45,678 nucleotides of DNA from a virus. Lineage: Duplodnaviria; Heunggongvirae; Uroviricota; Caudoviricetes. The translations under genes were made by a program, and so were the position numbers. This document shows positions 9,464-38,930 of the stretch, in pieces. The notes below the pieces were generated by a model, which saw only the letters and a program-made list of their open reading frames with translations, was not told where the DNA came from and ran no database searches. Position 1 is the first letter of the stretch, and every line of letters begins with the position of its first letter. The stretch lies in the IMG/VR virus record IMGVR_UViG_2663763326_000005; one strand, given 5' to 3'.

Positions 9464-12021
9464 CGTCCACCTCCGGAGAACAGGCCACCATCACGCATCT
9501 GTGTCTGAATTTCATCACGGGCACCCTTGCGGGCCATGTCATACACCGCCTTCAGAGCAGCCGGACCTATCTGCCCGTTCGTGCCGTCGTTGTTAATCAC
9601 CACATGGTTATTCTGCTCAAACGTCCCGGACGCCTGCGACCGGCTGTCTGCCATGCTGCCCGGTGTACCGACATAACCGCCGGTGGCATAGCCGCGCATC
9701 AGCCGGTAAAGATTCCCCACGCCAATCCGGCTGGTTGCCTCCTTCGTGAAGACAAACTCACCACGGTGAACAATCCCCGCTGGCTCATATTTGCCGCCGG
9801 TTCCCGTAAATCCTCCGGTTGCAAAATGGAATTTCGCCGCAGCGGCCTGAATGGCTGTACCGCCTGACGCGGATGCGCCGCCACCAACAGCCCCGCCAAT
9901 GGCGCTGCCGATACTCCCGACAATCCCCACCATTGCCTGCTTAAGCAGAATTTCTGTCATCATGGACAGCACGGAACGGGTGAAGCTGCGCCAGTTCTGC
10001 TCACTGCCGGTCAGCATCGCCGCCATATTCTGTGCAATACCATCAAAGGTCTGCGTGGCTGCACTTTTTACCTGCGACATACTGTCCGTGGCGCTCTCTT
10101 CCCACTCACTCCAGCCGGACTTCAGGCCTGCCATCCAGTTCCCGCGAAGCTGGTCTTCAGCCGCCCAGGTCTTTTTCTGCTCTGACATGACGTTATTCAG
10201 CGCCAGCGGATTATCGCCATACTGTTCCTTCAGGCGCTGTTCCGTGGCTTCCCGTTCTGCCTGCCGGTCAGTCAGCCCCCGGCTTTTCGCATCAATGGCG
10301 GCCCGTTTTGCCCGTTGCTGCTGTGCGAATTTATCCGCCTGCTGCGCCAGCGCGTTCAGGCGCTCCTGATACGTAACCTTGTCGCCAAGTGCAGCCAGCT
10401 GGCGTTTGTACTCCAGCGTCTCATCTTTATGCGCCAGCAGGGATTTCTCCTGTACAGACAGCTGGCGACGTTGCGCCGCCTCCTCCAGTACCGCGAACTG
10501 ACTCTCCGCCTTCCACAAATCCCGGCGCTGCTGGCTGATTTTCTCATTTGCTCCGGCATGCTTCTCCAGCGTCCGGAGTTCAGCCTGAAGCGTCAGCAGG
10601 GCAGCATGAGCACTGTCTTCCTGACGATCGCCCGCAGACACCTTCACGCCGGACTGCTTCGGCTTTTTCAGTGTCGTTTCATAGTCCTTTTTCGCTGCCG
10701 CCATCAGCGTGTTGTAATCTGCCTGCAGGATTTTTCCGTCTTTCAGGGCCTTATTCAGTTCTTCCTGACGGGCGGCATATTTCTCCAGCGGCGTCTGCAG
10801 CCGTTCGTAAGCCTTCTGCGCCTCTTCGGTATATTTCAGCCGTGACGCTTCGGTATCGCTCTGCTGCTGCGCATTTTTGTCCTGTTGACTCTGCTGTTCA
10901 GCCTTCTTTCGGGCGGCTTCAAGCGCAAGACGGGCCTTTTCACGATCATCCCAGTAACGCGCCCGCGCTTCATCGTTAACAAAATAATCATCCTTGCGCA
11001 GATTCCAGATGTCGTCTGCTTTCTTAAACGCAGCCTCTGCCTTAATCAGCATCTCCTGCGCGGTATCAGGACGACCAATATCCAGCACCGCATCCCACAT
11101 GGATTTGAATGCCCGCGCAGTCCTGTCTGCCCAGGTCTCCAGCGTGCCCATGTTCTCTTTCAGGCGGCGGGTCTGGTCATCAAACCCTTTCGTTGCGGCC
11201 TCGTTCGCCGCCTGCAATGCCCCGGCTTCATCGCCGGAACGCTGCAACTGAGCAACATACGCAATCTGCTCCGCCGTCACGTTATGGAACTGGCGTGCCA
11301 TCGCCGTCAGCCCCGACGTCGGGTCTGTGGTCAGCTTCCCGAAGGCTTCAGCGACCTTGTCCACCTCCACGCCGGATGCAGAGGAGAAACGCGCCACACT
11401 CTGGCTGATGGACGCAATCTGAGCCTCACCGCTTACCCCCGCCTTAACCAGTGCGCTGAGTGACTCGCTGGTCTGGTTAAACGTCAGCCCTGCCGCCTGC
11501 CCGGCTCTGGACAGGACCAGCATACGATCTGCCGTCAGACCCGCCTGATTGCCGGAAAGGACCAGCGTTTTGTTGAAATCGGACAGGGTTGAGTTGCCCT
11601 GATACCAGGCATACGCCAGCGCACCGGTCGCCACCGCCAGCGAGGTGGCCCCCACCATCGGCAGGGTGATCGCACCGGCAAGCCCCCTGAACATGGGGAT
11701 CATCCCGCCGAAGGAGTCCTTCACCTGCCCCCCCTGTTGCAGCAGGATCAGCCACGGACTTTGCCCGCCTGCAAGCTGCGTGGCCACGTCGGTGAACTGT
11801 GCAGGCAGCATACGCATGGCGGCTTTATACTGCCCGACGGAAATCCCCGCTTTCTGTGCAGCCAGCGCCTGTCGGCTCAGCGACTGTTCAACGACTGCCG
11901 CTGTTTTTTTCGCATCACTTTCCGTACCGGAAAAATGACGCCTGACTCTGGCCATCTGCTCGTCAAATCTGGCCGCATCCAGACTCAAATCAACGACCAG
12001 ATCGCCTACCGGTTCAGCCAT
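9460..12021 (-). CDS. H: tail tape measure protein H
   Basis: 853-aa ORF, MAEPVGDLVVDLSLDAARFDEQMARVRRHF.., same length and sequence character as lambda H. Confidence 0.9.
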   Translation of the reverse strand: MAEPVGDLVVDLSLDAARFDEQMARVRRHFSGTESDAKKTAAVVEQSLSRQALAAQKAGISVGQYKAAMRMLPAQFTDVATQLAGGQSPWLILLQQGGQVKDSFGGMIPMFRGLAGAITLPMVGATSLAVATGALAYAWYQGNSTLSDFNKTLVLSGNQAGLTADRMLVLSRAGQAAGLTFNQTSESLSALVKAGVSGEAQIASISQSVARFSSASGVEVDKVAEAFGKLTTDPTSGLTAMARQFHNVTAEQIAYVAQLQRSGDEAGALQAANEAATKGFDDQTRRLKENMGTLETWADRTARAFKSMWDAVLDIGRPDTAQEMLIKAEAAFKKADDIWNLRKDDYFVNDEARARYWDDREKARLALEAARKKAEQQSQQDKNAQQQSDTEASRLKYTEEAQKAYERLQTPLEKYAARQEELNKALKDGKILQADYNTLMAAAKKDYETTLKKPKQSGVKVSAGDRQEDSAHAALLTLQAELRTLEKHAGANEKISQQRRDLWKAESQFAVLEEAAQRRQLSVQEKSLLAHKDETLEYKRQLAALGDKVTYQERLNALAQQADKFAQQQRAKRAAIDAKSRGLTDRQAEREATEQRLKEQYGDNPLALNNVMSEQKKTWAAEDQLRGNWMAGLKSGWSEWEESATDSMSQVKSAATQTFDGIAQNMAAMLTGSEQNWRSFTRSVLSMMTEILLKQAMVGIVGSIGSAIGGAVGGGASASGGTAIQAAAAKFHFATGGFTGTGGKYEPAGIVHRGEFVFTKEATSRIGVGNLYRLMRGYATGGYVGTPGSMADSRSQASGTFEQNNHVVINNDGTNGQIGPAALKAVYDMARKGARDEIQTQMRDGGLFSGGGR

Positions 12022-23323: not shown

Positions 23324-23650
23324 TCAAGGACGTGACGGCGTAAAGATAAATTGTCTCTTCACTCCCTGACAGGGGCGATTCTTTTCAAATCGCCATTTCG
23401 CCATGGCCTTCACCACTTCATCACGAAACAAATTATGAGGCTCTGAGCGGAGAAAAACGATCCGTGTCACAGTCCCATCAGCACCAATATCGAACTTAAC
23501 CTCAACCAGCCCCTTGATATAATTTGCTGCAGCATATTCCGGATATCGTGGATACACCGTCACTAATTGCCGGGGCTCATCAGCTTTTTGCTGCGAGCAT
23601 CCCACTGCCAGGACAGATAACAGAAAAAGTAGTAAAAGGCGTCTTTTCAT
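23324..23650 (-). CDS. lipoprotein with TonB C-terminal-like domain (putative envelope protein)
   Basis: MKRRLLLLFLLSVLAVGCSQQ (lipobox-like LAVGC), then a TonB C-terminus-like segment (VYPRYPEYAAANYIKGLVEVKFDIGADGTVTRI). Confidence 0.55.
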   Translation of the reverse strand: MKRRLLLLFLLSVLAVGCSQQKADEPRQLVTVYPRYPEYAAANYIKGLVEVKFDIGADGTVTRIVFLRSEPHNLFRDEVVKAMAKWRFEKNRPCQGVKRQFIFTPSRP

Positions 23651-24130: not shown

Positions 24131-24424
24131 ATGAAAAAAATGTTGTTTTCTGCCGCTCTGGCAATGCTTATTACAGGATGTGCTCAACAGACGTTTACTG
24201 TTGGAAACAAACCTACAGCAGTAACACCAAAGGAAACCATCACCCATCATTTCTTCGTTTCGGGAATTGGGCAGAAGAAAACTGTCGATGCAGCAAAAAT
24301 TTGTGGTGGTGCAGAAAATGTTGTTAAAACAGAAACCCAGCAAACATTCGTAAATGGATTGCTCGGTTTTATTACTTTAGGCATTTATACTCCGCTGGAA
24401 GCGCGTGTGTATTGCTCACAATAA
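24131..24424 (+). CDS. bor: Bor lipoprotein (serum-resistance protein, Iss homolog)
   Basis: MKKMLFSAALAMLITGCAQQTFTVGNKPTAVTPKETITHHFFVSGIGQKKTVDAAKICGGAENVVKTETQQTFVNGLLGFITLGIYTPLEARVYCSQ matches lambda Bor as I recall it; ATG preceded by AGGATAATAAG. Confidence 0.85.
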   Translation: MKKMLFSAALAMLITGCAQQTFTVGNKPTAVTPKETITHHFFVSGIGQKKTVDAAKICGGAENVVKTETQQTFVNGLLGFITLGIYTPLEARVYCSQ

Positions 24425-27476: not shown

Positions 27477-27639
27477 GATTCCTCCTTGCTGCCAGTCGCA
27501 ACCATTTTTTATCAACCAGGCTGGCGGTATATCCGAGCAGTGTTGGTATTTCGGATGGTTTCAGCTCAGGCTTACGCTTACGACGATTTGGTACTCTGTA
27601 GATGTGTCCGTTCATGACACGAATAAGCGGTGTAGCCAT
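27469..27639 (-). CDS. ninE: NinE-like small protein (56 aa)
   Basis: Hand-translated: [56 protein letters not shown]. Basic, lambda NinE-like C-terminus (W-L-R-.-.-A-R). ATG overlaps the ybcN stop (TAATG). Below the ORF-track length cutoff. Confidence 0.5.
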   Translation of the reverse strand: MATPLIRVMNGHIYRVPNRRKRKPELKPSEIPTLLGYTASLVDKKWLRLAARRNHG

Positions 27640-28094
27640 TACGCCTCCTGCTTGTCGCGCAGCAGCTGGAACTCGCAGCTCTGCGGAATAGTCAGGTGGC
27701 AGCCAATATTCACCGCCCAGGCTTCAACCTTACACAGGAAGACATACATCTCTCCGGTATCGAGATCGGAGGTATGGCGTAACGACTGGATAGTAGTGAT
27801 TTCGCCGGTTACGACATCAACCAGGTCCTTGGTTTCATAACCGAGGTATGTGTGTTTGAGAGCATCTTTTACCCATGCTGCGGTAGCGAACGATTTCCCC
27901 CTGCTGATGAGGTATTCACTGATTTCGCTGTACCACATGTGGCTGAGTGCATTCTGGGAAAGACTGCGTTTCTCACGCCACGGTTTAAGCACCATGCGAA
28001 AGCATTTTCCGTTCTCCAGATAAGGCTGGATCTGCTGGCCGATAGCGATGAAGTTACCGCGATGCAGTTTGATGCCATCTTGTGGTAGGTTCAC
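27639..28094 (-). CDS. ybcN: YbcN-like nin-region protein
   Basis: [71 protein letters not shown].. resembles DLP12 YbcN as I recall it. Confidence 0.7.
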
Positions 28095-28541
28095 GCTTCA
28101 CCTCCACAGAGGTCAGACGCTAGATGCAAAAAAACGCAGGTGCATTTCTGCATCTGTGAAGGGAGAAGAGAGTTTGGATTGTGTGTGCGCATAAACGTCC
28201 CCGTTTAGCGCAGAAGTCACCGGAGTTGTTCAGGCTCCGGTGATACAATTATGGCGAATTGATTATTCATAATCAAACAAGATAAGGTCTCAAACTTCAT
28301 GCAAGCCAAGATTTATTTCTGACAGAATTATACAAAGAAGCTATTGGTCAGAATCTACTCGGACTGTAAAACATACGCATAACCTTAAGCTCTCACTTTA
28401 AGCATTGTTGAAATAATAGCCGTCAAGTACAACCTTAACCACGACTGGGATATTTCCCTGGCTACCACGAGTTGTACGGCTATTAAACTGCCGTTAAATT
28501 TAGTAAGAGAATTTCATCCGATAAGTCAAGGCATGTAAAAC

Positions 28542-29573
28542 ATGAAAATTAACAAGATATTATCATCTGCAACACTATTGTATGGTATGTCAATGGCCAT
28601 GTCGGTCGGGAGTTGTGCAACACCTGTCCAGACTAATCTTCCTGGTTACACCCCGGGTGCAGATATCATTAGTGTTTCACCGACCAGAAACCAGGTCGAT
28701 CTCATTGGTGATGTTGTTTATTCCCAGATAAAAGGAACTCGTTCTGTCAGACAGCTTCACATGTCAGTTCTTGTCCCGCGAACAAATGATTTAAAACCAG
28801 CCATTATTTATTATCCCGGCGGCGGATTCATGTCTTCTGAACATGACAAATTTATTGAAATGAGAATGGCTCTGGCAGAAGCTGGTTTTGTTGTGGCCGC
28901 TGTAGAATACAGAACAATTCCTGATACATTTCCAGCACCAGTTGAGGATGGAAAAGCTGCAATACGTTACCTGAGAGAGCATGCCAGCAATTATGGGATT
29001 GATCCTCAAAGAATCGGAGTTCTGGGTGACTCTGCCGGTGGATGGCTTGCCCAGATGATGGGAACTACAAATGGTGACAAAACCTTTGATAAAGGTGACT
29101 TTCTTCAGCAATCCTCAGATGTTCAGGCAGTTGCCACACTTTATGGGATTTCTGACTTGTTGAATATTGGCGAGGGGTTCCCTGAATCAGTGCAGGAGGT
29201 TCATCGCTCTCCTGCCGTAACCGAAGCCTTAATGATCAATGGCCCTGCATTCAGAAATTTTGCGGGAGCCCCCATCACAGCGTCAAAAGAAAAAGCGCTA
29301 AACGCCAGTCCAATCGGACATATGAAAGGAGTAAAACCCCCATTTCTTATTATGCATGGTAGCAAAGACACTCTGGTTTCACCTGAGCAAAGCGCCAAAC
29401 TATTCAGGATGTTGAAGAAGAACGGTGATAACGCTGAGTACGTGCTGGTAGAAGGGGCCGAGCATGGCGATAAGACATGGTATCAGCCAATTATTATAAA
29501 CAGAGTCGTTGAGTGGTTTACTAAAAACCTGGGAGCGCCTATAAAAACAGCTCCCCAACAACAAAACCCGTAA
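28542..29573 (+). CDS. secreted alpha/beta-hydrolase (esterase/lipase-like), 3-prime end clipped by IS insertion
   Basis: Signal-peptide-like N-terminus MKINKILSSATLLYGMSMAMSVGSCA; oxyanion-hole-like YYPGGGF; nucleophile-elbow-like GDSAGG; later H/D candidates (HGSKDT, AEHGD). The stop TAA (29571-29573) lies inside the IS66 left end. Confidence 0.7.
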   Translation: MKINKILSSATLLYGMSMAMSVGSCATPVQTNLPGYTPGADIISVSPTRNQVDLIGDVVYSQIKGTRSVRQLHMSVLVPRTNDLKPAIIYYPGGGFMSSEHDKFIEMRMALAEAGFVVAAVEYRTIPDTFPAPVEDGKAAIRYLREHASNYGIDPQRIGVLGDSAGGWLAQMMGTTNGDKTFDKGDFLQQSSDVQAVATLYGISDLLNIGEGFPESVQEVHRSPAVTEALMINGPAFRNFAGAPITASKEKALNASPIGHMKGVKPPFLIMHGSKDTLVSPEQSAKLFRMLKKNGDNAEYVLVEGAEHGDKTWYQPIIINRVVEWFTKNLGAPIKTAPQQQNP

Positions 29574-29599
29574 GCGTCAACGGAGCACCGTATTGACGC

Positions 29600-31213
29600 T
29601 TATTTATTGGTGAGTACTACGTTCCATGGCAGGAGTTCGTCAACTCGGTTGGAAGGCCATTCCGGCAGTACGCTCAGGATATGGCGCAGATACGCTTCCG
29701 GATCGATACCGTTCAGACGGCAGGTGCCGATCAGCCCGTACAACAGTGCTCCACGCTCGCCGCCGTGATCGCTGCCAAAGAACATAAAGTTTTTCTTTCC
29801 GAGACAGACTGCACGAAGCGCTCTTTCCGCAGCATTATTATCCGCCTCCGCCAGACCGTCATCACTGTAATAACAGAGGGCATCCCACTGATTCAGTACA
29901 TAGCTGAACGCTTCGCCCAGTCTGGATTTTTTCGACAGCGTACCATTCTTCTCCACCATCCATTCATGCAGCGACGTCAGTAACACTTTGCTTCGCTGCT
30001 GCCTGACGGCAAGACGCTCTGACTCCGGTAATCCCCGTATTTCATCCTCGATGGCGTACAGTTCACTGATTCGCTTCAGGGCTTCTTCTGCCGTCGCACT
30101 TTTGCTGCTGATGTATACATCGTGGATTTTTCGCCGGGCATGGGCCCAGCACGCAACTTCTGTCAGTGCACCACCTTCACGTTCTGCACTGAACAACCTG
30201 TCGTAACCTGTGAACGCATCCGCCTGCAGGATACCCCGGAAGGGGCGGAGGTGTTGCTCCGGGTGTTTCCCCTGCCGGTTCGGCGAGTACGCGAACCAGA
30301 CCGCTGGAGGAGATGACGAACCCACATTGCGATCATCCCGGACATACGTCCAGATACGCCCTGTTTTCGCCTTTTTCTGACCCGGTGCCAGTACCTTTAC
30401 CGGTGTGTCATCAGTGTGAACCTTGCGGGTGTTCATTACATAACGGTACAGGGCATCATTCACCGGTGTCATTAACTGGCAGCACGCGTCAACCCAGTTG
30501 GAGAGTAAGGCCCGGCTCAGTTCGACACCCTGGCGGGCAAAGATTTCACTCTGACGATACAGTGGCAGATGTTCGCAGTATTTTCCCGTTAACACGCGGG
30601 CAAGTAATCCGGGGCCCGCGATACCACGCTCTATCGGGCGGGACGGCGCCGGTGCTTCAACAATACAGTCACATTTTGTACAGGCTTTTTTTACCCGTTC
30701 TGTGCGGATCACTTTCAGGGCACTGCTCACCAGTTCCAGCTGTTCAGCGCTGACTTCCCCCAGATAATCCAGCTCACCGCCACACTCCGGGCAACAGCTT
30801 TCTTCTGGCTCCAGGCGGTGTATTTCACGGGGAAGGTGTGCCGGTAACGGACGACGATGGCGCGACTGTCGCAACTGGCGGGGAACCTGAGGATCGTCTT
30901 CCCGCCCACTGTAACGATCGCTGTCCTGTTCACGTTGTTTCAGCAGAGCCTCAGCCAGTTCAACTTCACGACGCAGTTTTTCAGAACGGGTACCGAACAG
31001 CATCCGGCGCAGTTTTTCTATCTGAGCCCGCAGATGTTCTATTTCCCGTTCATCTTCTTCGATCTTTTCTTCGGCACGTGTCAGTGCAGAGCGCAGGAAG
31101 GCTTCCGTCTCTTCAACCAGACTCAGTTGCTGGTCTTTCTGACGGAGGGCTTCAGCCTGCTCAGAGAGCAACCTTTCCAGCTCTGCGATGCGAATGAGGT
31201 ATTTCTGACTCAT
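29600..31213 (-). CDS. IS66-family transposase (TnpC/Orf3)
   Basis: 537-aa ORF with N-terminal coiled-coil/leucine-zipper-like region, Cys cluster (CPECGGEL, CTKCDC) and DDE-type core typical of IS66 transposases. Confidence 0.85.
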   Translation of the reverse strand: MSQKYLIRIAELERLLSEQAEALRQKDQQLSLVEETEAFLRSALTRAEEKIEEDEREIEHLRAQIEKLRRMLFGTRSEKLRREVELAEALLKQREQDSDRYSGREDDPQVPRQLRQSRHRRPLPAHLPREIHRLEPEESCCPECGGELDYLGEVSAEQLELVSSALKVIRTERVKKACTKCDCIVEAPAPSRPIERGIAGPGLLARVLTGKYCEHLPLYRQSEIFARQGVELSRALLSNWVDACCQLMTPVNDALYRYVMNTRKVHTDDTPVKVLAPGQKKAKTGRIWTYVRDDRNVGSSSPPAVWFAYSPNRQGKHPEQHLRPFRGILQADAFTGYDRLFSAEREGGALTEVACWAHARRKIHDVYISSKSATAEEALKRISELYAIEDEIRGLPESERLAVRQQRSKVLLTSLHEWMVEKNGTLSKKSRLGEAFSYVLNQWDALCYYSDDGLAEADNNAAERALRAVCLGKKNFMFFGSDHGGERGALLYGLIGTCRLNGIDPEAYLRHILSVLPEWPSNRVDELLPWNVVLTNK

Positions 31214-31243
31214 GACCGTTTTTATAATGCGGTCAGGAGTTTT

Positions 31244-31594
31244 TTACAACATTGTCAGTGAGTTACGGCTGGATGTTTTTGGCTGACGCCAGTCCAGCTT
31301 ATCGAGGAGCATTGCCAGTTGCGAGCGGGTAATGGATACCTTGCCGTCACGTACCGCAGGCCAGATAAACTGGCCTTCCTCCAGGCGTTTGGTGAACAGG
31401 CACAGACCATCAGCATCAGCCCAAAGAATTTTGACGGTGTCACCCCGTCGGCCACGGAAGATAAACAGGTGACCGGAGAAGGGATTATCATTCAGCACAT
31501 GTTGTACCTGTTCTCCCAGTCCGTTGAAGGATTTACGCATATCGGTAACGCCGGCAACGAGCCAGATACGGGTACCTGATGGGAGTGAGATCAT
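31244..31594 (-). CDS. IS66-family accessory protein TnpB (Orf2)
   Basis: MISLPSGTRIWLVAGVTDMRKSFNGLGEQVQHVLNDNPFSGHLFIFRGRRGDTVKILWADADGLCLFTKRLEEGQFIWP; typical IS66 Orf2. Confidence 0.85.
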   Translation of the reverse strand: MISLPSGTRIWLVAGVTDMRKSFNGLGEQVQHVLNDNPFSGHLFIFRGRRGDTVKILWADADGLCLFTKRLEEGQFIWPAVRDGKVSITRSQLAMLLDKLDWRQPKTSSRNSLTML

Positions 31595-32016
31595 CTTCCC
31601 CTCCCGGTCAGTTCACGGATCAACACTGTGAGCAGCTCTGGCGATGGATTTTCCAGCGTCATGTTACCGTGACGGAATTCCACCTTGCAGGAACTGGCAC
31701 TGACTCTGGTCTGAGTGGAAGTGGATAAAGACGGCGCAATGGCCGCCACAGGTTCTTTCTGCTCATCCGGCGTTATTTCTACAGGTAATAATTCAACGCC
31801 AGTGTCAGAAGAGGTCGTTACCGGAAGACGCCGCGAAACACGCCCTTCGTTCTGCCAGAGCCTGAGCCATTTGAAAATAACATTATCATTGACGCCATTT
31901 TCACGTGCAATCTGTGCAACACAAGCTCCAGGTTGTGATGCCAGTTCCACCATACGAAGTTTGAATTCATTCGAATAGTTTTTACGAGGTTCTTTTCGCC
32001 AGTCCTGTAATTCCAT
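31591..32016 (-). CDS. IS66-family accessory protein TnpA (Orf1)
   Basis: 141-aa ORF with HTH-like segment (ASQPGACVAQIARENGVNDNVIFKWLRLW); overlaps TnpB start (ATGA). Confidence 0.8.
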   Translation of the reverse strand: MELQDWRKEPRKNYSNEFKLRMVELASQPGACVAQIARENGVNDNVIFKWLRLWQNEGRVSRRLPVTTSSDTGVELLPVEITPDEQKEPVAAIAPSLSTSTQTRVSASSCKVEFRHGNMTLENPSPELLTVLIRELTGRGR

Positions 32017-32130
32017 ACTTAGATGTCCGTCTATATCAGATGGGCGTCTAAGTTACCAATTCTCGTCTGATGGCTACATACGGCGGTCAGTTTACGCTTA
32101 CCAAAACCCAAACGCTAACCTGTAAAAAGA

Positions 32131-32149
32131 GGGAGGGCTAAGCCCTCCC
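32131..32149. terminator. bidirectional intrinsic terminator shared by the hydrolase (pre-insertion) and the adhesin gene
   Basis: GGGAGGGC-TAA-GCCCTCCC. On the minus strand it directly follows the adhesin stop and is followed by TCTTTTTAC; on plus it is followed by CATTCAATTTTG. Confidence 0.75.
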
Positions 32150-32161
32150 CATTCAATTTTG

Positions 32162-35100
32162 TTAACTATCCTTTTCAGGTAGTTTTACAACATAAGTCCT
32201 TATTGTTTTCTCATATGTATTTTTGCTATTCGTTATTTTGGCCTTAATCCAGTGATAACCACTTTCATAGGTGCTGAATTCCGAAGCTGCATTACCTGTC
32301 CAGTGTAACGTTACTGTAGCAGGCTCCATTTTGACCCGTTGAGAGTCTGGACTATCTTCACTACCAGCAGAAAACTCAACCGTACCAGATAATGGGTTTC
32401 CAAAATGATCGACAAATCGAGCATAAATACCTACTGGAGATCCATCGTTTGTCTCATAACCAGGATCTTTTGTTAGAGTCAATACTCCATTTGCGTCATC
32501 AGCGTACAGGGAGAATGATTTCACCGCGCTAACATCACTGCCAAGTTCGTTTAAGGTCGCCGTTAATTTATACGAACCAACCGTTCGACCATGTACGCTT
32601 ACCGTAGCCTGACCGTTCTCATCAGTCGTTACTGTGGTTTTATCAACCACCAACGCACCATATTTAGACGGCCCAGATGTCTTAACATTCAATGCTCGAC
32701 CACTTAATGCTTCGCCTGACTTACTTTTCAACAGTAACGTAAATACCAGATTGTTGGTATCGCTCACTACAGCCGAAGATGCAGATGATGTGATCTCCAA
32801 CACAGCCCCCTTCACATCCGTCACGGCATCAATATTCTGGCTTGCGGTTATGCGTTTCCCATCCAGAACATACTCGGCCTGAATTGTGTACTGGCCTGAT
32901 TTCGATGCAGTGAACTGCGTTGTTGCCTGTCCATGAGCATCCAGTTGCAGATTACTACTGGTCAATGATGCTCCCGTCGATGGTGTAATCGTTAAATCCA
33001 CCTCGCCTGTAAACGCATTGTTATTCGCATCAACCAACTGAATGTTTACTGTTGCGTTTTCACTGCCATCGGCCACAATCTCCTGTTTTGATACACTCAT
33101 ATTCAGTTCTGCAGAAGCAACATCGGGCACAAAAGTTAACTTAACGCTGCCAGATTCCACGCTATGGGAACCGTCAGTCACCCGTGCAGTCACCGTGTAC
33201 TCACCAGCTTTCACCGTTGTAAGCGGAACAGAAACATGCCCTGTTGAATCAGTCACGATATTTGTTGGTACAGATAATCCTTCAGATGAGGTGATGAGCT
33301 GAATCTTTTGCCCATTGACCGACGCATTCGTATTTGTCAGCTGCACATCTAATACCGCTGCATCCTTACCATTAGCAGGAATATTGGAAATTAAACTACT
33401 GCTTTCAGGCGTCAGTGACAGTGAAGCTCCGGTCATATTTGATGCAAAGGTCACTGTTAACTCAGTAGACATCTGAGAACCAGCATGAGCTGTAATCACG
33501 TAAGACCCCGGAGTGGAGCTTATTAACGCAAAAATAGCATTACCATTTTCGTCAGTTGAAACAGCATGTTCACCACCAACTTGAGTTATCCCTGCTGGTA
33601 AAGACAATGTGACAGCATAACCAGGAACAACATTGCCGAAACGGTCCGCAAGGCTTACAGTTACCATATTTCTCTGTTTTCCATCAGCCAATGCATTATT
33701 TTGGCTGGCTTCAAACTGAGAGAATGTAACCTGCTGCCGGTCCTCAATAAAGGTGATTTCTTTCTTAACACCTGAGAAATCATGACTATCAGATTTAACA
33801 CCGATAGTAATCTTACCAGCTCGTTTTGAAGTTACTGTCGCGCTATAGACACCGTCTTTTTCCGTTACAGTCCCAAACTCGACTCCTTCTGCCTGGTTAA
33901 GAGCATAAAAGCTCAGAGTGTTATCACCAGTGATTGCATTTCCTTGTGAATCCTTCACTGCCAGTTGTAGATTGATATTGTAACCAACTACCTGTTCTGC
34001 TGGTGCAGCGGTTAAAACAGCACTGACCTCAGAATCAGGTTCTGTTGTTGCTGTTTGCTTAATACTGAGAGTAAATGTTTTTCCCTGAACTTTTGCAGTT
34101 ACACGTACCGTACCAGCCTGCGAACCAGCAGCCAGAACAGAGCGATATACCCCAGCAGAGATTTCCTCTACCGCGCCTAATGACGGAGCAGTTACCGTTT
34201 CACGCTGTCGAGCACTATTGCTATCTGCTGTAAATTCCACTGACATTTCAATGTCATCAGCCAGTCCGGTTAATGCCTTACCGTTACTATCTTTCAGGCT
34301 TAATACTATCGGATAAGTGGATTGGCTATCAGCAGAGATCGTCGGCGACGAATCTCCATCCAGTGTAAAAGACGAATCAGCTGTCGATACATCACTATCA
34401 GTAATGGCTGCCTGCTTAATATTCAGAGTAAAGGTTTTTCCCTGAACTTTTGCAGTTACACGTACCGTACCAGCCTGCGAACCAGCAGCCAGAACAGAGC
34501 GATATACACCAGCAGAGATTTCCTCTACCGCGCCTAATGACGGAGCAGTTACCGTTTCACGCTGTCGAGCACTATTGCTATCTGCTGTAAATTCCACTGA
34601 CATTTCAATGTCATCAGCCAGTCCGGTTAATGCCTTACCGTTACTATCTTTCAGGCTTAATACTATCGGATAAGTGGATTGGCTATCAGCAGAGATCGTC
34701 GGCGACGAATCTCCATCCAGTGTAAAAGACGAATCAGCTGTCGATACATCACTATCAGTAATGGCTGCCTGCTTAATATTCAGAGTAAAGGTTTTTCCCT
34801 GAACTTTTGCAGTTACACGTACCGTACCAGCCTGCGAACCAGCAGTCAGAACAGAGCGATATACCCCAGCAGAGATTTCCTCTACCGCGCCTAATGACGG
34901 AGCAGTTACCGTTTCACGCTGTCGAGCACTATTGCTATCTGCTGTAAATTCCACTGACATTTCAATGTCATCAGCCAGTCCGGTTAATGCCTTACCGTTA
35001 CTATCTTTCAGGCTTAATACTATCGGATAAGTGGATTGGCTATCAGCAGAGATTGTCGGCGACGAATCTCCATCCAGTGTAAAAGACGAATCAGCCGTCG

Positions 35101-36427
35101 AGACACCACTATCAGTAACGCTAATATTCATCACGGCATAGTTGGAAACGTTGCCTCTGTTATCCTGTACTGTGGCTCCAACATTCCACGAATTTACACC
35201 TTCGCTTTTATAAGCCGGTAAAGTGATCTGCCATGATGTGCCATTTCCACTGATCTTGCCGCCAGCCGCAGTGAATGCACTATCATTCCACTGTACAGAC
35301 TTGATACCACCACTAGCATTGTTGATTGTCAGTGTTACAGGGATGATTGATTCCCCCTCCCCCTGAACAGACTCTGGCAAACTGATTTTCAGTGCATGCT
35401 TCTTCTTGTACTCCAGAACAATGTTGTTATTTCGTTCAACAAAATCATAACGCCGGTTCTGGACTTCTCGCATAACTGCAACATTATCGCTGCTAAGCTG
35501 TTCAGCCAAGGAAACGCCCGGGCGATAATTAAACTCAACACCAAAGGTTGTATCGTGAGTGTTGCTCTGTCCTTGCTTATGCTGTGCAGAAAACTTAATC
35601 AGAGGAACTGGTGTATAAGAAATTCCCCCAGTAACTGCGTAAGGGTTTTCCTGCAGGTTATCGCTTCCAAATAACCCGACATTTTTACCATAATATTTTT
35701 CAAACTGAATAGATGCCCCTAATTGCGGATAAGCAGGTAGCCATCCTTCAGCAGAAAAATCCCAGCCATTTGCAGGTCTTTCCAGATAATCATCAATATC
35801 ACGACTGTTCTTCCAGTCAGATAGACCAAAATAGGTATTTACACCAAGCCTGAAATAATCCCTCCAGTACTCAACCCCAAAACCTGCACGAGAGTGACTA
35901 CGACTTAAATCGTAATCATAGAAAACATTCGCACCCAACATTGCGTTATCAGGAGTGAAATGACGAATCCCCAAACCAATATTGGTCTGATTTCGGTCAT
36001 CAGTACGATGTAGTGATGTCTGACTGAATAACACATAATCCTGAGTATCCAGCCATGGATATAAAAAGTCGAATGATGAATCCTTCAAGGAAAAAGAATC
36101 ATCGACATTAAGCTTGATGCGCGCATTGCCATATTGTTGCAACCAGTCGACGACCTCTTTTGTCGCCTGAGTTGATAAAGTATTTACAGCAAAACTACTT
36201 GCATTATTATTCGCCAGGCTCTGACCTGCACTTGCTGCAAATGAGGCCACTTTATTTGCATGCTCATCGCTGGCATAAATTTGCGTAACATCTTTATTAC
36301 CAGATGATGCAAAACTGTTTGCTGGGATCAAAGAAAGAGAAACTGGAGATAATATCTGGGTAACAATTACCGACCATGTAATCGCGCCAGATGCAGTTTT
36401 TTTTAACTTTTTATTCACAGTGGTCAT
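32162..36427 (-). CDS. inverse autotransporter adhesin (intimin/invasin family), 1421 aa, with Ig-like repeats
   Basis: N-terminal signal/anchor, then a beta-barrel-like region (DFLYPWLDTQDYVLFSQTSLHRTDDRNQTNIGLGIRHF.., GFGVEYWRDYFRLGVNTYF, EGWLPAYPQLGASIQFEKYYG), then a long series of Ig-like passenger repeats including three near-identical 119-aa units. AT-rich upstream region. Confidence 0.8.
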   Translation of the reverse strand: MTTVNKKLKKTASGAITWSVIVTQILSPVSLSLIPANSFASSGNKDVTQIYASDEHANKVASFAASAGQSLANNNASSFAVNTLSTQATKEVVDWLQQYGNARIKLNVDDSFSLKDSSFDFLYPWLDTQDYVLFSQTSLHRTDDRNQTNIGLGIRHFTPDNAMLGANVFYDYDLSRSHSRAGFGVEYWRDYFRLGVNTYFGLSDWKNSRDIDDYLERPANGWDFSAEGWLPAYPQLGASIQFEKYYGKNVGLFGSDNLQENPYAVTGGISYTPVPLIKFSAQHKQGQSNTHDTTFGVEFNYRPGVSLAEQLSSDNVAVMREVQNRRYDFVERNNNIVLEYKKKHALKISLPESVQGEGESIIPVTLTINNASGGIKSVQWNDSAFTAAGGKISGNGTSWQITLPAYKSEGVNSWNVGATVQDNRGNVSNYAVMNISVTDSGVSTADSSFTLDGDSSPTISADSQSTYPIVLSLKDSNGKALTGLADDIEMSVEFTADSNSARQRETVTAPSLGAVEEISAGVYRSVLTAGSQAGTVRVTAKVQGKTFTLNIKQAAITDSDVSTADSSFTLDGDSSPTISADSQSTYPIVLSLKDSNGKALTGLADDIEMSVEFTADSNSARQRETVTAPSLGAVEEISAGVYRSVLAAGSQAGTVRVTAKVQGKTFTLNIKQAAITDSDVSTADSSFTLDGDSSPTISADSQSTYPIVLSLKDSNGKALTGLADDIEMSVEFTADSNSARQRETVTAPSLGAVEEISAGVYRSVLAAGSQAGTVRVTAKVQGKTFTLSIKQTATTEPDSEVSAVLTAAPAEQVVGYNINLQLAVKDSQGNAITGDNTLSFYALNQAEGVEFGTVTEKDGVYSATVTSKRAGKITIGVKSDSHDFSGVKKEITFIEDRQQVTFSQFEASQNNALADGKQRNMVTVSLADRFGNVVPGYAVTLSLPAGITQVGGEHAVSTDENGNAIFALISSTPGSYVITAHAGSQMSTELTVTFASNMTGASLSLTPESSSLISNIPANGKDAAVLDVQLTNTNASVNGQKIQLITSSEGLSVPTNIVTDSTGHVSVPLTTVKAGEYTVTARVTDGSHSVESGSVKLTFVPDVASAELNMSVSKQEIVADGSENATVNIQLVDANNNAFTGEVDLTITPSTGASLTSSNLQLDAHGQATTQFTASKSGQYTIQAEYVLDGKRITASQNIDAVTDVKGAVLEITSSASSAVVSDTNNLVFTLLLKSKSGEALSGRALNVKTSGPSKYGALVVDKTTVTTDENGQATVSVHGRTVGSYKLTATLNELGSDVSAVKSFSLYADDANGVLTLTKDPGYETNDGSPVGIYARFVDHFGNPLSGTVEFSAGSEDSPDSQRVKMEPATVTLHWTGNAASEFSTYESGYHWIKAKITNSKNTYEKTIRTYVVKLPEKDS
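34050..35120. repeat. three near-perfect direct tandem repeats of 357 bp inside the adhesin gene
   Basis: The same string (e.g. gcttaat.. at 34057, 34414, 34771) recurs with a 357-bp period. It encodes DSGVSTADSSFTLDGDSSPTISADSQSTYPIVLSLKDSNGKALTGLADDIEMSVEFTADSNSARQRETVTAPSLGAVEEISAGVYRSVL.. three times and produces identical spurious plus-strand ORFs at 34322, 34679 and 35036. Confidence 0.9.
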
Positions 36428-36676
36428 AGTTCAATCAACGTTATGAATATAATGAAAAAAATAACTGGTATGACAAGAGGCGCGAAATATACAGCTCGTT
36501 ACAAAAAAATCAACTCAAAAATAAAATAAAATCTCTGCATAAACTTTATGGCTAAATGATTTCACAACAATGGAAGAAAAATTTTGTTGCTCACGCAATC
36601 AATCATTTCGGGCGTTACAACTAGTCCTAGATTATATTCGCTAGGTATACTTTATTTTTAAGCTAATACTTTAGCT

Positions 36677-37378
36677 CTATTTCATCGCTCCTTTCAGCCC
36701 GAACTTAGCTTTGATTTCTGCGATCTTCGCCAGAGCCTGTGCACGATTTAGAGGCCTACCGCCCATGACAGGAAGTTGTTTTACTGGTTCAGGTATAGCC
36801 TCACCACGGTTAATTCGCGCGGTCATACAGGCCAGTTCATCGGCAGCCTTGCGCCGTAATTCCGCGTCAGTCAACGCATTGGCCCGCATGTTCTGATACA
36901 GGTTGGTAACCAGCCAGTAGTGCGCGTTTGATTTCCACGGATAAGACTCTGCATCCGGATACAGACCACGCTTCCGGCAATACTCGTAAACCATATCAAC
37001 CAGCTCGCTGACGTTTGGCAGCCCGGCGGTAACGGATGCTTCTTCCCGGCACCATGCAACAAACTGCCCGGGTGATGGCAGAAATGGTCTATTCTGCCGA
37101 CGGGCAACACGCATTCCGTCGCTCACCTGCTCCATCGTGGTGATCCCGTTTTCCCGGAAAGCCAGAACCCACTGGCGGCGGATTTCGTTCAGTTCGTTCT
37201 GGTCACGATTAGCCAGGCTCGCCGGGAAAGTTGCCAGTAACTGGCTGAATACACCGTTGATTATCTGCGCTACCTGCTGTACCTGCGGCTTTTCGTCGTA
37301 CTGTTCCGGCATGTTGTTGGCGATCCGACGCATCTGCTCACGGTCAAAGTTAATCATCTGTGCGGCGATGTTTTTCAT
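36677..37378 (-). CDS. P: replication protein P (DnaB helicase loader)
   Basis: MKNIAAQMINFDREQMRRIANNMPEQYDEKPQVQQVAQIINGVFSQLLATFPASLANRDQNELNEIRRQWVLAFRENGITTMEQV; 233 aa as lambda P. Confidence 0.9.
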   Translation of the reverse strand: MKNIAAQMINFDREQMRRIANNMPEQYDEKPQVQQVAQIINGVFSQLLATFPASLANRDQNELNEIRRQWVLAFRENGITTMEQVSDGMRVARRQNRPFLPSPGQFVAWCREEASVTAGLPNVSELVDMVYEYCRKRGLYPDAESYPWKSNAHYWLVTNLYQNMRANALTDAELRRKAADELACMTARINRGEAIPEPVKQLPVMGGRPLNRAQALAKIAEIKAKFGLKGAMK

Positions 37379-38394
37379 AGATCCACCCCGTAAATCCAGT
37401 CTGTGTTTGTCAGGTCGAGTTTTGGTTTGCTAGCTGTCACGCCTGCCTGTTGCTTGTTACGGTTGATTTCGAGTTGGGTCCACTTGTCGCGGAGTTTGGC
37501 CGGACTTAGCACGTTACCGGACCAGAAGTTGTCCTGGCATGCCCAGCGGAACAGCACGCACATGTCGCGGTGGTTACGTCCGTCACGTTCACGCATCAGG
37601 CGGATATCGTTAGCCCACCCTGCAAAATTCGGTTTTCTGGCTGATGGCGCGATGGTCTTCACCATGTCAAACATCCACTCTGCGGCGGTCAGGTCTTCTG
37701 CTGTCCCCCACTTGCTGCCGCTCTGAATTGCAGCATCCGGTTTCACCACAGGAAGATCGTTTTCTGGTTGGTCAGAGGATTCGCCAGAATTCTCGGACGA
37801 AAAAGGTTTTATATTGTCTTTTGTTAGTTTGTCTTTTGTGTTTACCTGATTCGGGTAAACGCCTTTACCTGATTTGGGTAAACTTTTTTTACCTGATTCA
37901 GGTAAATTTACCTCTTTCAGGTAAACTTTATTTTTCTTACCTGATTCGGGTAATGTTGACCATTCACTGACCACATTATTAATGCCGGTATTCCGCCCGC
38001 TCTGAATAAAAATCCCACGCTTTACCAGAACACTTTTTGCAGCAGAACACTTGTGCGGCAATATCCCGGTTAATTCGGAAAGTTGCTCGTTGCTAACCCA
38101 ATCCAGTTTTTTATTAAAGCCATATGTTTTGCGCATGACAGCCAGAAAGACCAGAAGCTGGTGCTGTGTTAATCCGGCCAGCATCACAGCTTCCAGCAAC
38201 TCATTTGCAATGCGCGTATAACCATCATCGAGATCTGCCACGCGCGGCTCCTTTTGTGCCGCATCCGGCACTGGAAAATTGAATATCTCAGCAGTGTTTG
38301 CCATAATTCCTCCCGCAATGAGTGTGTTACGATTTGCACCTGAAAGTCGGTTCTGTTCCAGCAGACCGGCTTTCGCCATTTCTGAACCTGTCAT
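37375..38394 (-). CDS. O: replication initiator O-like protein (origin-binding)
   Basis: Lambda-O-like N-terminal domain (ADLDDGYTRIANELLEAVMLAGLTQHQLLVFLAVMRKTYGFNK), iterons inside the coding sequence, stop overlaps the P start. Confidence 0.8.
   Translation of the reverse strand: MTGSEMAKAGLLEQNRLSGANRNTLIAGGIMANTAEIFNFPVPDAAQKEPRVADLDDGYTRIANELLEAVMLAGLTQHQLLVFLAVMRKTYGFNKKLDWVSNEQLSELTGILPHKCSAAKSVLVKRGIFIQSGRNTGINNVVSEWSTLPESGKKNKVYLKEVNLPESGKKSLPKSGKGVYPNQVNTKDKLTKDNIKPFSSENSGESSDQPENDLPVVKPDAAIQSGSKWGTAEDLTAAEWMFDMVKTIAPSARKPNFAGWANDIRLMRERDGRNHRDMCVLFRWACQDNFWSGNVLSPAKLRDKWTQLEINRNKQQAGVTASKPKLDLTNTDWIYGVDL
37842..37954. repeat. replication origin iterons (5 x 17-bp TTACC..GGTAA) with adjacent AT-rich tract
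   Basis: TTACCTGATTCGGGTAA (37842), TTACCTGATTTGGGTAA (37865), TTACCTGATTCAGGTAA (37889), TTACCTCTTTCAGGTAA (37908), TTACCTGATTCGGGTAA (37938); AT-rich 37801-37841. Confidence 0.8.
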
Positions 38395-38930
38395 ATCGCC
38401 CCCAGCATGGTAGTAACCATCGCCATCAATGGACCAGCCAGATCTGGGTCCACACGAAACATCGACACAATACCTTCACTAATTTCCTTCAGTTTCTGGT
38501 GGCGTGGTGCGTTGAGAATGACAGCCTGTTTTGCCTCACTGAGTTCCTTTTCCATTTCAGCCAACCTAGCCATGAAGCTATCCTGCTCAACCAGGTAACC
38601 GCGATATTCCAGCGGTAGTACCGCCAGAATTGCCGGGGTCAGTTCACGCACGTTATTTCGGTATTTTTCAGAATCGAATTTGTTATCGAGGAAGCGGAAC
38701 AGCTTCTGGCGTGCACGGCTGACATCATCAGGGAAATCGATGGTGCCGCCGCCCTGCTCCAGATACTCATTCACAATGAGTGTGGCAACGACATCCTGAT
38801 TATCTACAGCCGACCAGGCGCGGACGGCATCACGGATTTTTTCGTGGCCTGGCACCTGTTTTGTTTGAGAACGATTTATCACCGCAGTCGGGCTAAATCC
38901 GCTAGTCTGTTGGTATGTAAGTGGTTGCAT
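38391..38930 (-). CDS. putative CII-like regulatory protein (179 aa) between cro and O
   Basis: Position between cro and O, stop overlapping the O start (ATGA). Sequence not lambda cII; assignment is by position and a vague resemblance to CII-like prophage regulators. Confidence 0.35.
   Translation of the reverse strand: MQPLTYQQTSGFSPTAVINRSQTKQVPGHEKIRDAVRAWSAVDNQDVVATLIVNEYLEQGGGTIDFPDDVSRARQKLFRFLDNKFDSEKYRNNVRELTPAILAVLPLEYRGYLVEQDSFMARLAEMEKELSEAKQAVILNAPRHQKLKEISEGIVSMFRVDPDLAGPLMAMVTTMLGAI

Follow-up and report, generated by a model that had tools for sequence, protein, structure and literature searches.

The 45,678-nt virus record IMGVR_UViG_2663763326_000005 (the whole of which we call the window, and to which all coordinates refer) holds a lambda-like prophage whose interval under study, between genes P and ninB (28095-36676), is a recombinational cargo hot-spot. 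This interval holds a gene for an inverse-autotransporter (type Ve) adhesin of 1421 aa on the minus strand (32162-36427), a gene for an esterase of 343 aa on the plus strand (28542-29573) and, between the two, the insertion sequence (IS) ISEc23. Adhesin and esterase are independent passengers of the slot, because prophages with only one of the genes exist, their terminators are separate, and the slot holds alternative cassettes elsewhere. They are juxtaposed cargo and no obligate functional pair, and both are under purifying selection. Very probably, the adhesin module, the esterase module and ISEc23 came into this variable slot as three separate acquisitions. A first-pass annotation, made from the letters alone, had recognised that the slot between P and the nin genes of this lambdoid prophage holds foreign cargo, which is supported. 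It had also taken esterase and adhesin for one lysogenic-conversion module, which is contradicted by their independent assortment, separate terminators and different relatives.

Genome counts were made among 5,426 complete E. coli genomes, the adhesin being counted by the 5' part of its gene. The adhesin was found in 560 genomes (about 10%) and the esterase gene in 677. Mis-assembly of a chromosomal locus into the prophage, which would have explained the arrangement away, is excluded by its presence in closed chromosomes, 73 of which have the whole IS-containing arrangement and 427 the direct esterase/adhesin junction without IS. Read from P, the slot of the window contains the adhesin, ISEc23, the esterase, a small open reading frame (ORF) and ybcN, and that of strain JJ1886 the adhesin, esterase, small ORF and ybcN. 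The esterase is missing in strain 144 and in seven IMG/VR prophages (L003, L017-L019, L028, L031 and L032, out of about 30 informative IMG/VR loci), where the order is adhesin, small ORF, ybcN. Conversely, two loci (L004 and L005) have no adhesin and read ren, emrE, a hypothetical gene, ybcK, esterase, small ORF, ybcN; prophages with the esterase alone are found in well over 100 genomes. Neither gene is present in the isolated phage PhiR34_1, which has the same immunity region as the window and O and P genes 99.6% identical to it, and in which ren, emrE, ybcK, ybcL and ybcM stand between P and ybcN. The adhesin lies about 250 nt after P in 37 of 37 IMG/VR loci, despite differing O and Q alleles. 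The boundary between the two modules lies immediately behind the esterase stop codon, and in the junction alignment the hairpin GGGAGGGC…GCCCTCCC travels with the adhesin, also in strain 144, a different hairpin being found in esterase-only prophages. Their nearest relatives differ as well, being a chromosomal inverse autotransporter of E. albertii for the adhesin, and esterases of plant-associated Enterobacterales for the hydrolase.

ISEc23 occupies 2,532 bp on the minus strand (29570-32101) and was identified by Pfam matches, its inverted repeats and the RefSeq name. It has everything expected of the IS66 family: tnpC (29600-31213, DDE_Tnp_IS66, E-value 9e-98), tnpB (31244-31594, TnpB_IS66, 1.1e-36) and tnpA (31591-32016, HTH_Tnp_1, 5.1e-12), all on the minus strand, 24-nt terminal inverted repeats starting with GTAAGCG (29570-29593 and 32078-32101), and an 8-bp target-site duplication, CAAAACCC, whose left and right copies (29562-29569 and 32102-32109) were placed by alignment with the IS-free locus of JJ1886. 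In that strain, which has the empty site, the esterase is 347 aa long and convergent with the adhesin, 36 bp from the adhesin stop codon, with one G+C-rich hairpin between them. The insertion point is in the final codons of the esterase: the end …QQQNPNANL* of JJ1886 reads …QQQNP* in the window, where the IS end provides the last codon and the stop; the orphaned esterase 3' end (…N-A-N-L-stop) is found by alignment to JJ1886 at 32110-32125 on the plus strand. Transposition duplicated the 8 bp, replaced the last four esterase residues and split off the hairpin. Because ISEc23 sits between them, the two genes lie 2.6 kb apart in the window and have no terminator in common, contrary to the proposed convergence on a shared bidirectional one; the proposal does hold for JJ1886, and the convergent arrangement with a shared hairpin is the IS-free ancestral state. 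In the window, the G+C-rich hairpin GGGAGGGC-TAA-GCCCTCCC (32130-32150), found by a terminator scan of both strands and bidirectional in form, stands at the adhesin 3' end only, as the terminator of the adhesin module. We also considered that the IS might have targeted the module boundary, and rejected this, as alignments end at that point because the remaining esterase tail is too short for BLAST.

The extent of the foreign DNA could be redrawn from these comparisons. Without the IS, the island measures 5.9 kb and has a G+C content (GC) of 43.4%, whereas the neighbouring early region has 48.0% and the remainder of the window 52.4%; the esterase cargo module up to the IS point (28237-29569, plus strand) has 43.6%. 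About 8.5 kb of AT-rich foreign DNA had been announced, which is right for these 5.9 kb. The annotation had missed ISEc23, which at 53% GC is not AT-rich and makes up about 30% of the 8.5-kb interval, and had included the leftmost 140-180 nt or so (28095 to about 28236-28277), which are conserved phage backbone. The first 183 nt of the interval are about 90% identical to about 2,800 E. coli genomes, and in pairwise BLAST against four loci (L002-L005) homology to an adhesin-only prophage stopped at 28236 and that to a generic DLP12-type backbone at 28277. This backbone contains a 33-codon ORF (28091-28192, minus strand; hypothetical protein in RefSeq), conserved in lambdoid prophages and DLP12 and not part of the cargo, which by the DLP12 gene order is ylcH-like.

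Pfam and PDB matches bear out the intimin/invasin-type adhesin first proposed for the minus strand. The IAT_beta profile (PF11924) matched residues 57-334 over profile positions 3-279 of 279, with an E-value of 5.6e-101 and 338 bits against a cut-off of 22.3. The beta-barrel spans about residues 57-341, and its PDB matches were invasin (4e1t, 9.9e-74) and intimin (4e1s, 6.8e-63). All stretches of Invasin_D3 (seven, 2.3e-61) and Big_1 (five, 8.4e-56) came after residue 341, so that the passenger consists of about ten immunoglobulin (Ig)-like domains of these two types, C-terminal to the barrel. The N-terminus, with a basic KKLKK, a hydrophobic stretch and ANSFA-SS, is a predicted long Sec signal. 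LysM gave no Pfam match in the adhesin, and there is no cysteine in its 1421 aa, so that a disulphide-bonded lectin cap like those in intimin and invasin is ruled out. The AlphaFold (AF2) model of the last 332 residues was all-beta, with three Ig-like domains, and had FdeC (4e9l), InvD and invasin as best PDB matches. Word-indexed searches with the full adhesin and with the C-terminal 332 aa returned near-identical E. coli alleles only, which is why the alignment for structure prediction was shallow. When 1.84 billion representatives were searched exhaustively with the tip, no close relatives were found outside its own family, and the matches were generic Big_1 adhesins at 25-33% identity, which give no clue to a ligand. 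RefSeq annotates the adhesin generically, and NCBIfam gave no above-threshold name to the adhesin or to the esterase.

By comparison with the family, the adhesin would be exported by Sec, and the beta-barrel assembly machinery (BAM) would insert its N-terminal 12-stranded barrel into the outer membrane. The chain of about ten Ig domains would then be threaded out as a hairpin and form a rod with an Ig-like tip, for adhesion or biofilm. The length of this rod may be set by a repeat: Tandem Repeats Finder detected three tandem 357-nt units (34056-35118, minus strand; 98% matching), each coding for an Ig domain of 119 aa, with 113 to 118 of 119 residues identical. Adhesin alleles of 1183, 1302, 1421 and 1540 aa, corresponding to one to four copies of the repeat, are found among strains, and the distal 330 residues exist as three alleles (100%, 91% and 88% identity). 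The ratio of non-synonymous to synonymous substitution rates (dN/dS) was 0.09-0.26 along the gene. Compared with two other alleles (L021 and L036), dS was 0.03-0.05 in the first 441 codons and 0.26-0.43 distally, which indicates recombination inside the gene. The low dN/dS, together with this jump of dS between the N- and C-terminal parts in some pairs, led us to consider the adhesin gene as functional and mosaic. Upstream of it, 249 nt with 30% GC (36428-36676, minus strand) are the predicted site of a promoter of its own, with two minus-strand matches to a sigma-70-like consensus (36513-36486 and 36476-36449). As the analogy of fdeC, yeeJ and iatB suggests, this region may plausibly also be a target of silencing by H-NS. 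The adhesin module is made up of the AT-rich upstream region, the FdeC-like inverse autotransporter of 1421 aa and its own hairpin terminator.

The origin of the adhesin was sought in phages and in other species. A tblastn search of 50,697 deposited phage records gave two distant matches (29-31% identical), neither of them in a complete phage genome, so that none of the deposited phages searched carries the adhesin. In a scan of one genome per species, the only hits were a chromosomal relative in E. albertii and a 357-bp 'Moraxella' contig. The first, in E. albertii NBRC 107761 (L006, 8001-8711), is an inverse autotransporter 80% identical over the first 237 residues, after which the contig ends; its context is not phage, the gene lying downstream of ydcR-ydcSTUV-patD. 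This hints that the phage adhesin was captured from a chromosomal gene, with the E. albertii lineage as a possible source, and we regard it as a lead only. The second (L007, CAXORL010000232.1, 'Moraxella osloensis', 357 bp) is 99% identical over the whole contig to one 119-aa repeat unit. The contig is exactly as long as the repeat period. We regard it as probable contamination from E. coli or an assembly artefact of collapsed repeats, and not as a Moraxella gene.

One could imagine that the adhesin serves the phage and not its host, by masking receptors against superinfection or by binding released virions. Its gene belongs to the early-right operon, shares the orientation of O, P and the nin genes, and is therefore expected to be transcribed upon induction; moreover, Ren, an exclusion protein, fills the same slot in relatives. 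Against this, no similarity to a defence or exclusion family was seen, although no PADLOC search was made, and all matches were inverse autotransporters for adhesion to hosts. We consider such a phage-serving role highly improbable.

The plus-strand gene at 28542-29573 codes, as first described, for an alpha/beta-hydrolase with a GDSAG motif and an N-terminal signal. Its Pfam matches were BD-FAE (5.5e-45, 153.9 bits against a cut-off of 26.8) and Abhydrolase_3 (1.1e-22). GDSAG lies at residue 162, and Ser164, Asp276 and His308 were invariant in 60 homologues. PDB sequence matches were 6nkf, 6mly, 6xyc and 6tkx, with which Foldseek agreed, and the predicted structure (predicted local distance difference test, pLDDT, 83.5) resembles a rumen lipase, carbohydrate esterases of the gut microbiota and a bifunctional GH43-CE enzyme. 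The esterase had been described as secreted, and an export signal is indeed present. Free secretion is doubtful, as we found a lipobox. By the lipoprotein rule applied (an invariant Cys within residues 15-35, with a basic N-region before it), a regular expression following the logic of PROSITE PS51257 matched GMSMAMSVGS-C25, with Lys2 and Lys5 ahead and Ala at +2. The Cys is kept in the closest homologues, 75-80% identical (P0150-P0152), though not in Dickeya. Since the lipobox is present and conserved in these homologues, the esterase is probably a lipoprotein anchored in the outer membrane.

Most homologues of the esterase with 63-80% identity belong to plant-associated Enterobacterales (Dickeya, Pectobacterium, Pantoea, Kosakonia, Klebsiella) and to rhizobia. 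The Dickeya protein P0216, which is 66% identical over 327 residues, has a Sec signal peptide and the UniRef name 'ferulate esterase'; it is probably FaeD. The Dickeya loci L045 and L046 encode a second BD-FAE paralogue (10090-11076, 328 aa), 3 kb away from the esterase homologue and with its gene diverging from that of a LysR regulator. Such a pair is consistent with FaeT/FaeD, both of which are listed as CE10 feruloyl esterases in papers on Dickeya. A metagenomic homologue, 75% identical, is encoded directly downstream of a phenolic-acid decarboxylase gene, and this context supports cleavage of hydroxycinnamoyl esters as the likely ancestral role. The opposite-strand module would encode a FaeD-like (CE10/BD-FAE) carbohydrate or hydroxycinnamoyl esterase with a Ser-Asp-His triad, and its E. 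coli lineage would carry a lipoprotein signal for probable anchoring in the outer membrane. Its dN/dS was 0.13-0.22, and the esterase is therefore maintained.

Several observations weigh against the picture of independent, functional cargo given so far. Both genes occur together in about 500 of the 560 adhesin-positive genomes, which is compatible with co-selection. Promoter-like matches upstream of the adhesin are no commoner than in shuffled sequence, and a promoter scan upstream of the esterase gave no match. Other points touch the functions proposed. The C-terminal model of the adhesin is only moderately confident (pLDDT 76, 5 sequences), the best structural match of the esterase is a rumen 'lipase' and its substrate is not readable from sequence, and the probable equation of P0216 with FaeD draws on the UniRef name and the gene context. 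Expression in the lysogen, control by H-NS, and the substrates and ligands of the two proteins are what we infer. As to the features of a moron, the cargo shows presence or absence between neighbouring phage genes, deviant composition and its own terminators, its promoter consisting of consensus matches at chance level only.

The co-occurrence might mean that esterase and adhesin form one co-adapted lysogenic-conversion module, in which, for instance, the esterase deacylates a host or bacterial glycan and so exposes the ligand of the adhesin. The genes are adjacent in 427 and split by the IS in 73 of the 560 adhesin-positive genomes, both products carry envelope export signals, and selection on both genes is purifying. 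Such a pairing is nevertheless improbable in view of the adhesin-only and esterase-only prophages, of the opposite orientation, the separate terminators and a recombination junction placed exactly at the esterase stop codon, and of closest relatives that are unrelated to each other, those of the esterase sitting in phenolic-acid or plant-polymer contexts and not beside adhesins. That the two genes are so often found together has its simplest explanation in the clonal success of a single prophage of E. coli sequence type 131 (ST131).

Alternatively, the cargo could be silent, decaying junk in a cryptic prophage, its ORFs being intact only through the youth of ST131. An IS is already in the locus, no promoter rises above chance level, and other inverse autotransporters of E. 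coli are poorly expressed in the laboratory (Goh 2019, PMC6714894). However, divergent alleles from unrelated prophages and hosts (dS 0.13-0.43) are full-length and have dN/dS of 0.09-0.26, the IS has cost the esterase four codons only and the adhesin none, and the head, tail, lysis, replication and integration genes of the prophage are complete. We find decay distinctly improbable, and return to the reading of two maintained, independently acquired genes.

The window is 100% identical to closed E. coli ST131 chromosomes. The lambda-like prophage is integrated next to icd and is complete in its head, tail, lysis, replication and integration genes. The early-right genes, which are on the minus strand, follow each other as cro, the gene of a YdaT-domain protein where cII would be, O, P, the interval, ybcN/ninB, ninE, ybcO, rusA, ylcG and Q. 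The interval is flanked by P (36677-37378, Pfam Phage_lambda_P, 3.4e-61) and by NinB/YbcN (27639-28094). The protein in the lambda cII position has 179 aa (38391-38930, minus strand) and is called 'toxin YdaT domain-containing' in RefSeq and cII in the record of PhiR34_1. Further cargo of the same prophage is an iss/bor-type serum-survival lipoprotein gene at about 24131-24424 (plus strand), adjoining the lysis cassette, together with a small TonB-family ORF at about 23324-23650 (minus strand); the coordinates of both were transferred from the RefSeq annotation of the matching locus L001. The genes of ISEc23 are oriented as the early-right operon, and since the element separates P from the nin-Q genes, it could have a polar effect on delayed-early and late expression in this copy of the prophage. 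In two chromosomes (H3 and H4; NZ_OZ369368.1 and NZ_OZ369168.1), the full-length match to the island covers 12,059 bp in three pieces, instead of 8,801 bp, and overlaps Q and the lysis genes, which suggests a further rearrangement or insertion in this sub-lineage.

ST131 is the dominant multidrug-resistant extraintestinal clone of E. coli, and vaccine research takes an interest in its set of adhesins, with FdeC and SinH both as candidates. The locus adds to this set a large surface adhesin unlisted in the published catalogue of E. coli inverse autotransporters, whose strains included JJ1886, a carrier, and EC958, of the same ST131 subgroup. If expressed in vivo, the adhesin would qualify as a candidate antigen and colonisation factor, and would exemplify the spread of type Ve adhesins by lambdoid phages. 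The esterase matters less, as an odd plant-type enzyme in a human pathogen. A wider proposal is that the phage adhesin represents an eighth lineage of inverse autotransporters in E. coli, a mobile one, and is a lysogenic-conversion adhesin for gut or urinary colonisation by ST131. In this proposal, variation in repeat number and tip allele would tune its reach and specificity, the esterase would let the lysogen cleave dietary or host esters, and phages would spread a colonisation toolkit through extraintestinal pathogenic E. coli (ExPEC). We offer it tentatively and hold it, taken together, to be rather unlikely. There is also a corrective value, since the genes of the 'paired module' turn out to be neighbours by chance in a cargo hot-spot, where an IS now separates them. 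What is left standing is an FdeC-like adhesin that moves with phages, is missing from the catalogue and is common in a pandemic clone, and beside it an unexpected plant-type esterase, probably a lipoprotein.

Goh et al. 2019 (PMC6714894) analysed 126 E. coli genomes, described seven groups of inverse autotransporters, all of them encoded at fixed positions of the chromosome, and reported that several of them give biofilm when over-expressed and are regulated by H-NS or LeuO. In their table, JJ1886 and EC958 are scored for fdeC, iatA and iatB only (PMC6714894). JJ1886 carries the phage adhesin gene, though scored without it in that study. Among known systems, FdeC/EaeH (PDB 4E9L) is the most alike, in length (1415 versus 1421 aa), in its collinear run of signal, barrel and Ig domains, and in having neither LysM nor lectin cap. 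The two proteins share 33% identity over 1,215 collinear residues and 55% in the barrel, and FdeC is the best structural match of the tip. FdeC is nonetheless encoded by a separate gene at its usual chromosomal site, also present in JJ1886, whereas the phage adhesin is phage-borne and has near-identical 119-aa repeats of variable number and a tip without close outside relatives. The 33% identity and the presence of fdeC elsewhere in JJ1886 rule out that the adhesin is the FdeC orthologue.

Invasin of Yersinia pseudotuberculosis and intimin of enteropathogenic and enterohaemorrhagic E. coli have the matching outer-membrane barrel and a Big_1/Invasin_D3 passenger; the phage adhesin differs from them in having no LysM and no disulphide-bonded C-type lectin tip. 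We did not place it in the intimin/invasin subgroup, as it reached 329 bits against an NCBIfam intimin cut-off of 1400, lacks LysM and cysteine, and has an all-beta tip. It also stayed below the NCBIfam cut-offs for IatC (388 versus 2400), SinH (318 versus 999) and YchO (270 versus 508), and under those for Ilp, YrIlm and Inv. No NCBIfam model named IatD or YeeJ was among its matches, no direct comparison having been made with those two. IatC, IatB/SinH, IatA/YchO, IatD and YeeJ belong to the same secretion family, but their genes have fixed chromosomal positions whereas that of the phage adhesin is in a prophage slot. The 'Adhesin-Invasin New PAI' (PMC10848155) could not be tied to the phage adhesin gene. 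For the esterase, the closest system is FaeD of Dickeya (CAZy CE10, BD-FAE), the phage enzyme being 66% identical to P0216, with the same triad and the same overall length. They differ in that the Dickeya protein has a signal-peptidase-I signal, whereas the phage esterase and its 75-80% relatives have a lipobox, and in that E. coli, the host, is not a plant pathogen. Secretion of FaeD through the Out type II system has been reported (PMC9007343).

Topic and accession-number searches of the searchable literature turned up no description of the adhesin/esterase locus, in line with the initial impression that it was undescribed as phage cargo. Judged by their sequences, both proteins clearly belong to known families, and neither is orthologous to a named, characterised protein. 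As a piece of phage cargo, the island resembles the lambdoid morons bor/iss and lom and the ren-emrE-ybcK-ybcL-ybcM block of DLP12, which likewise are self-contained, of deviant GC, equipped with their own terminators and placed between conserved genes; compared with these, the cargo described here is unusually large, with a single gene of 4.3 kb.

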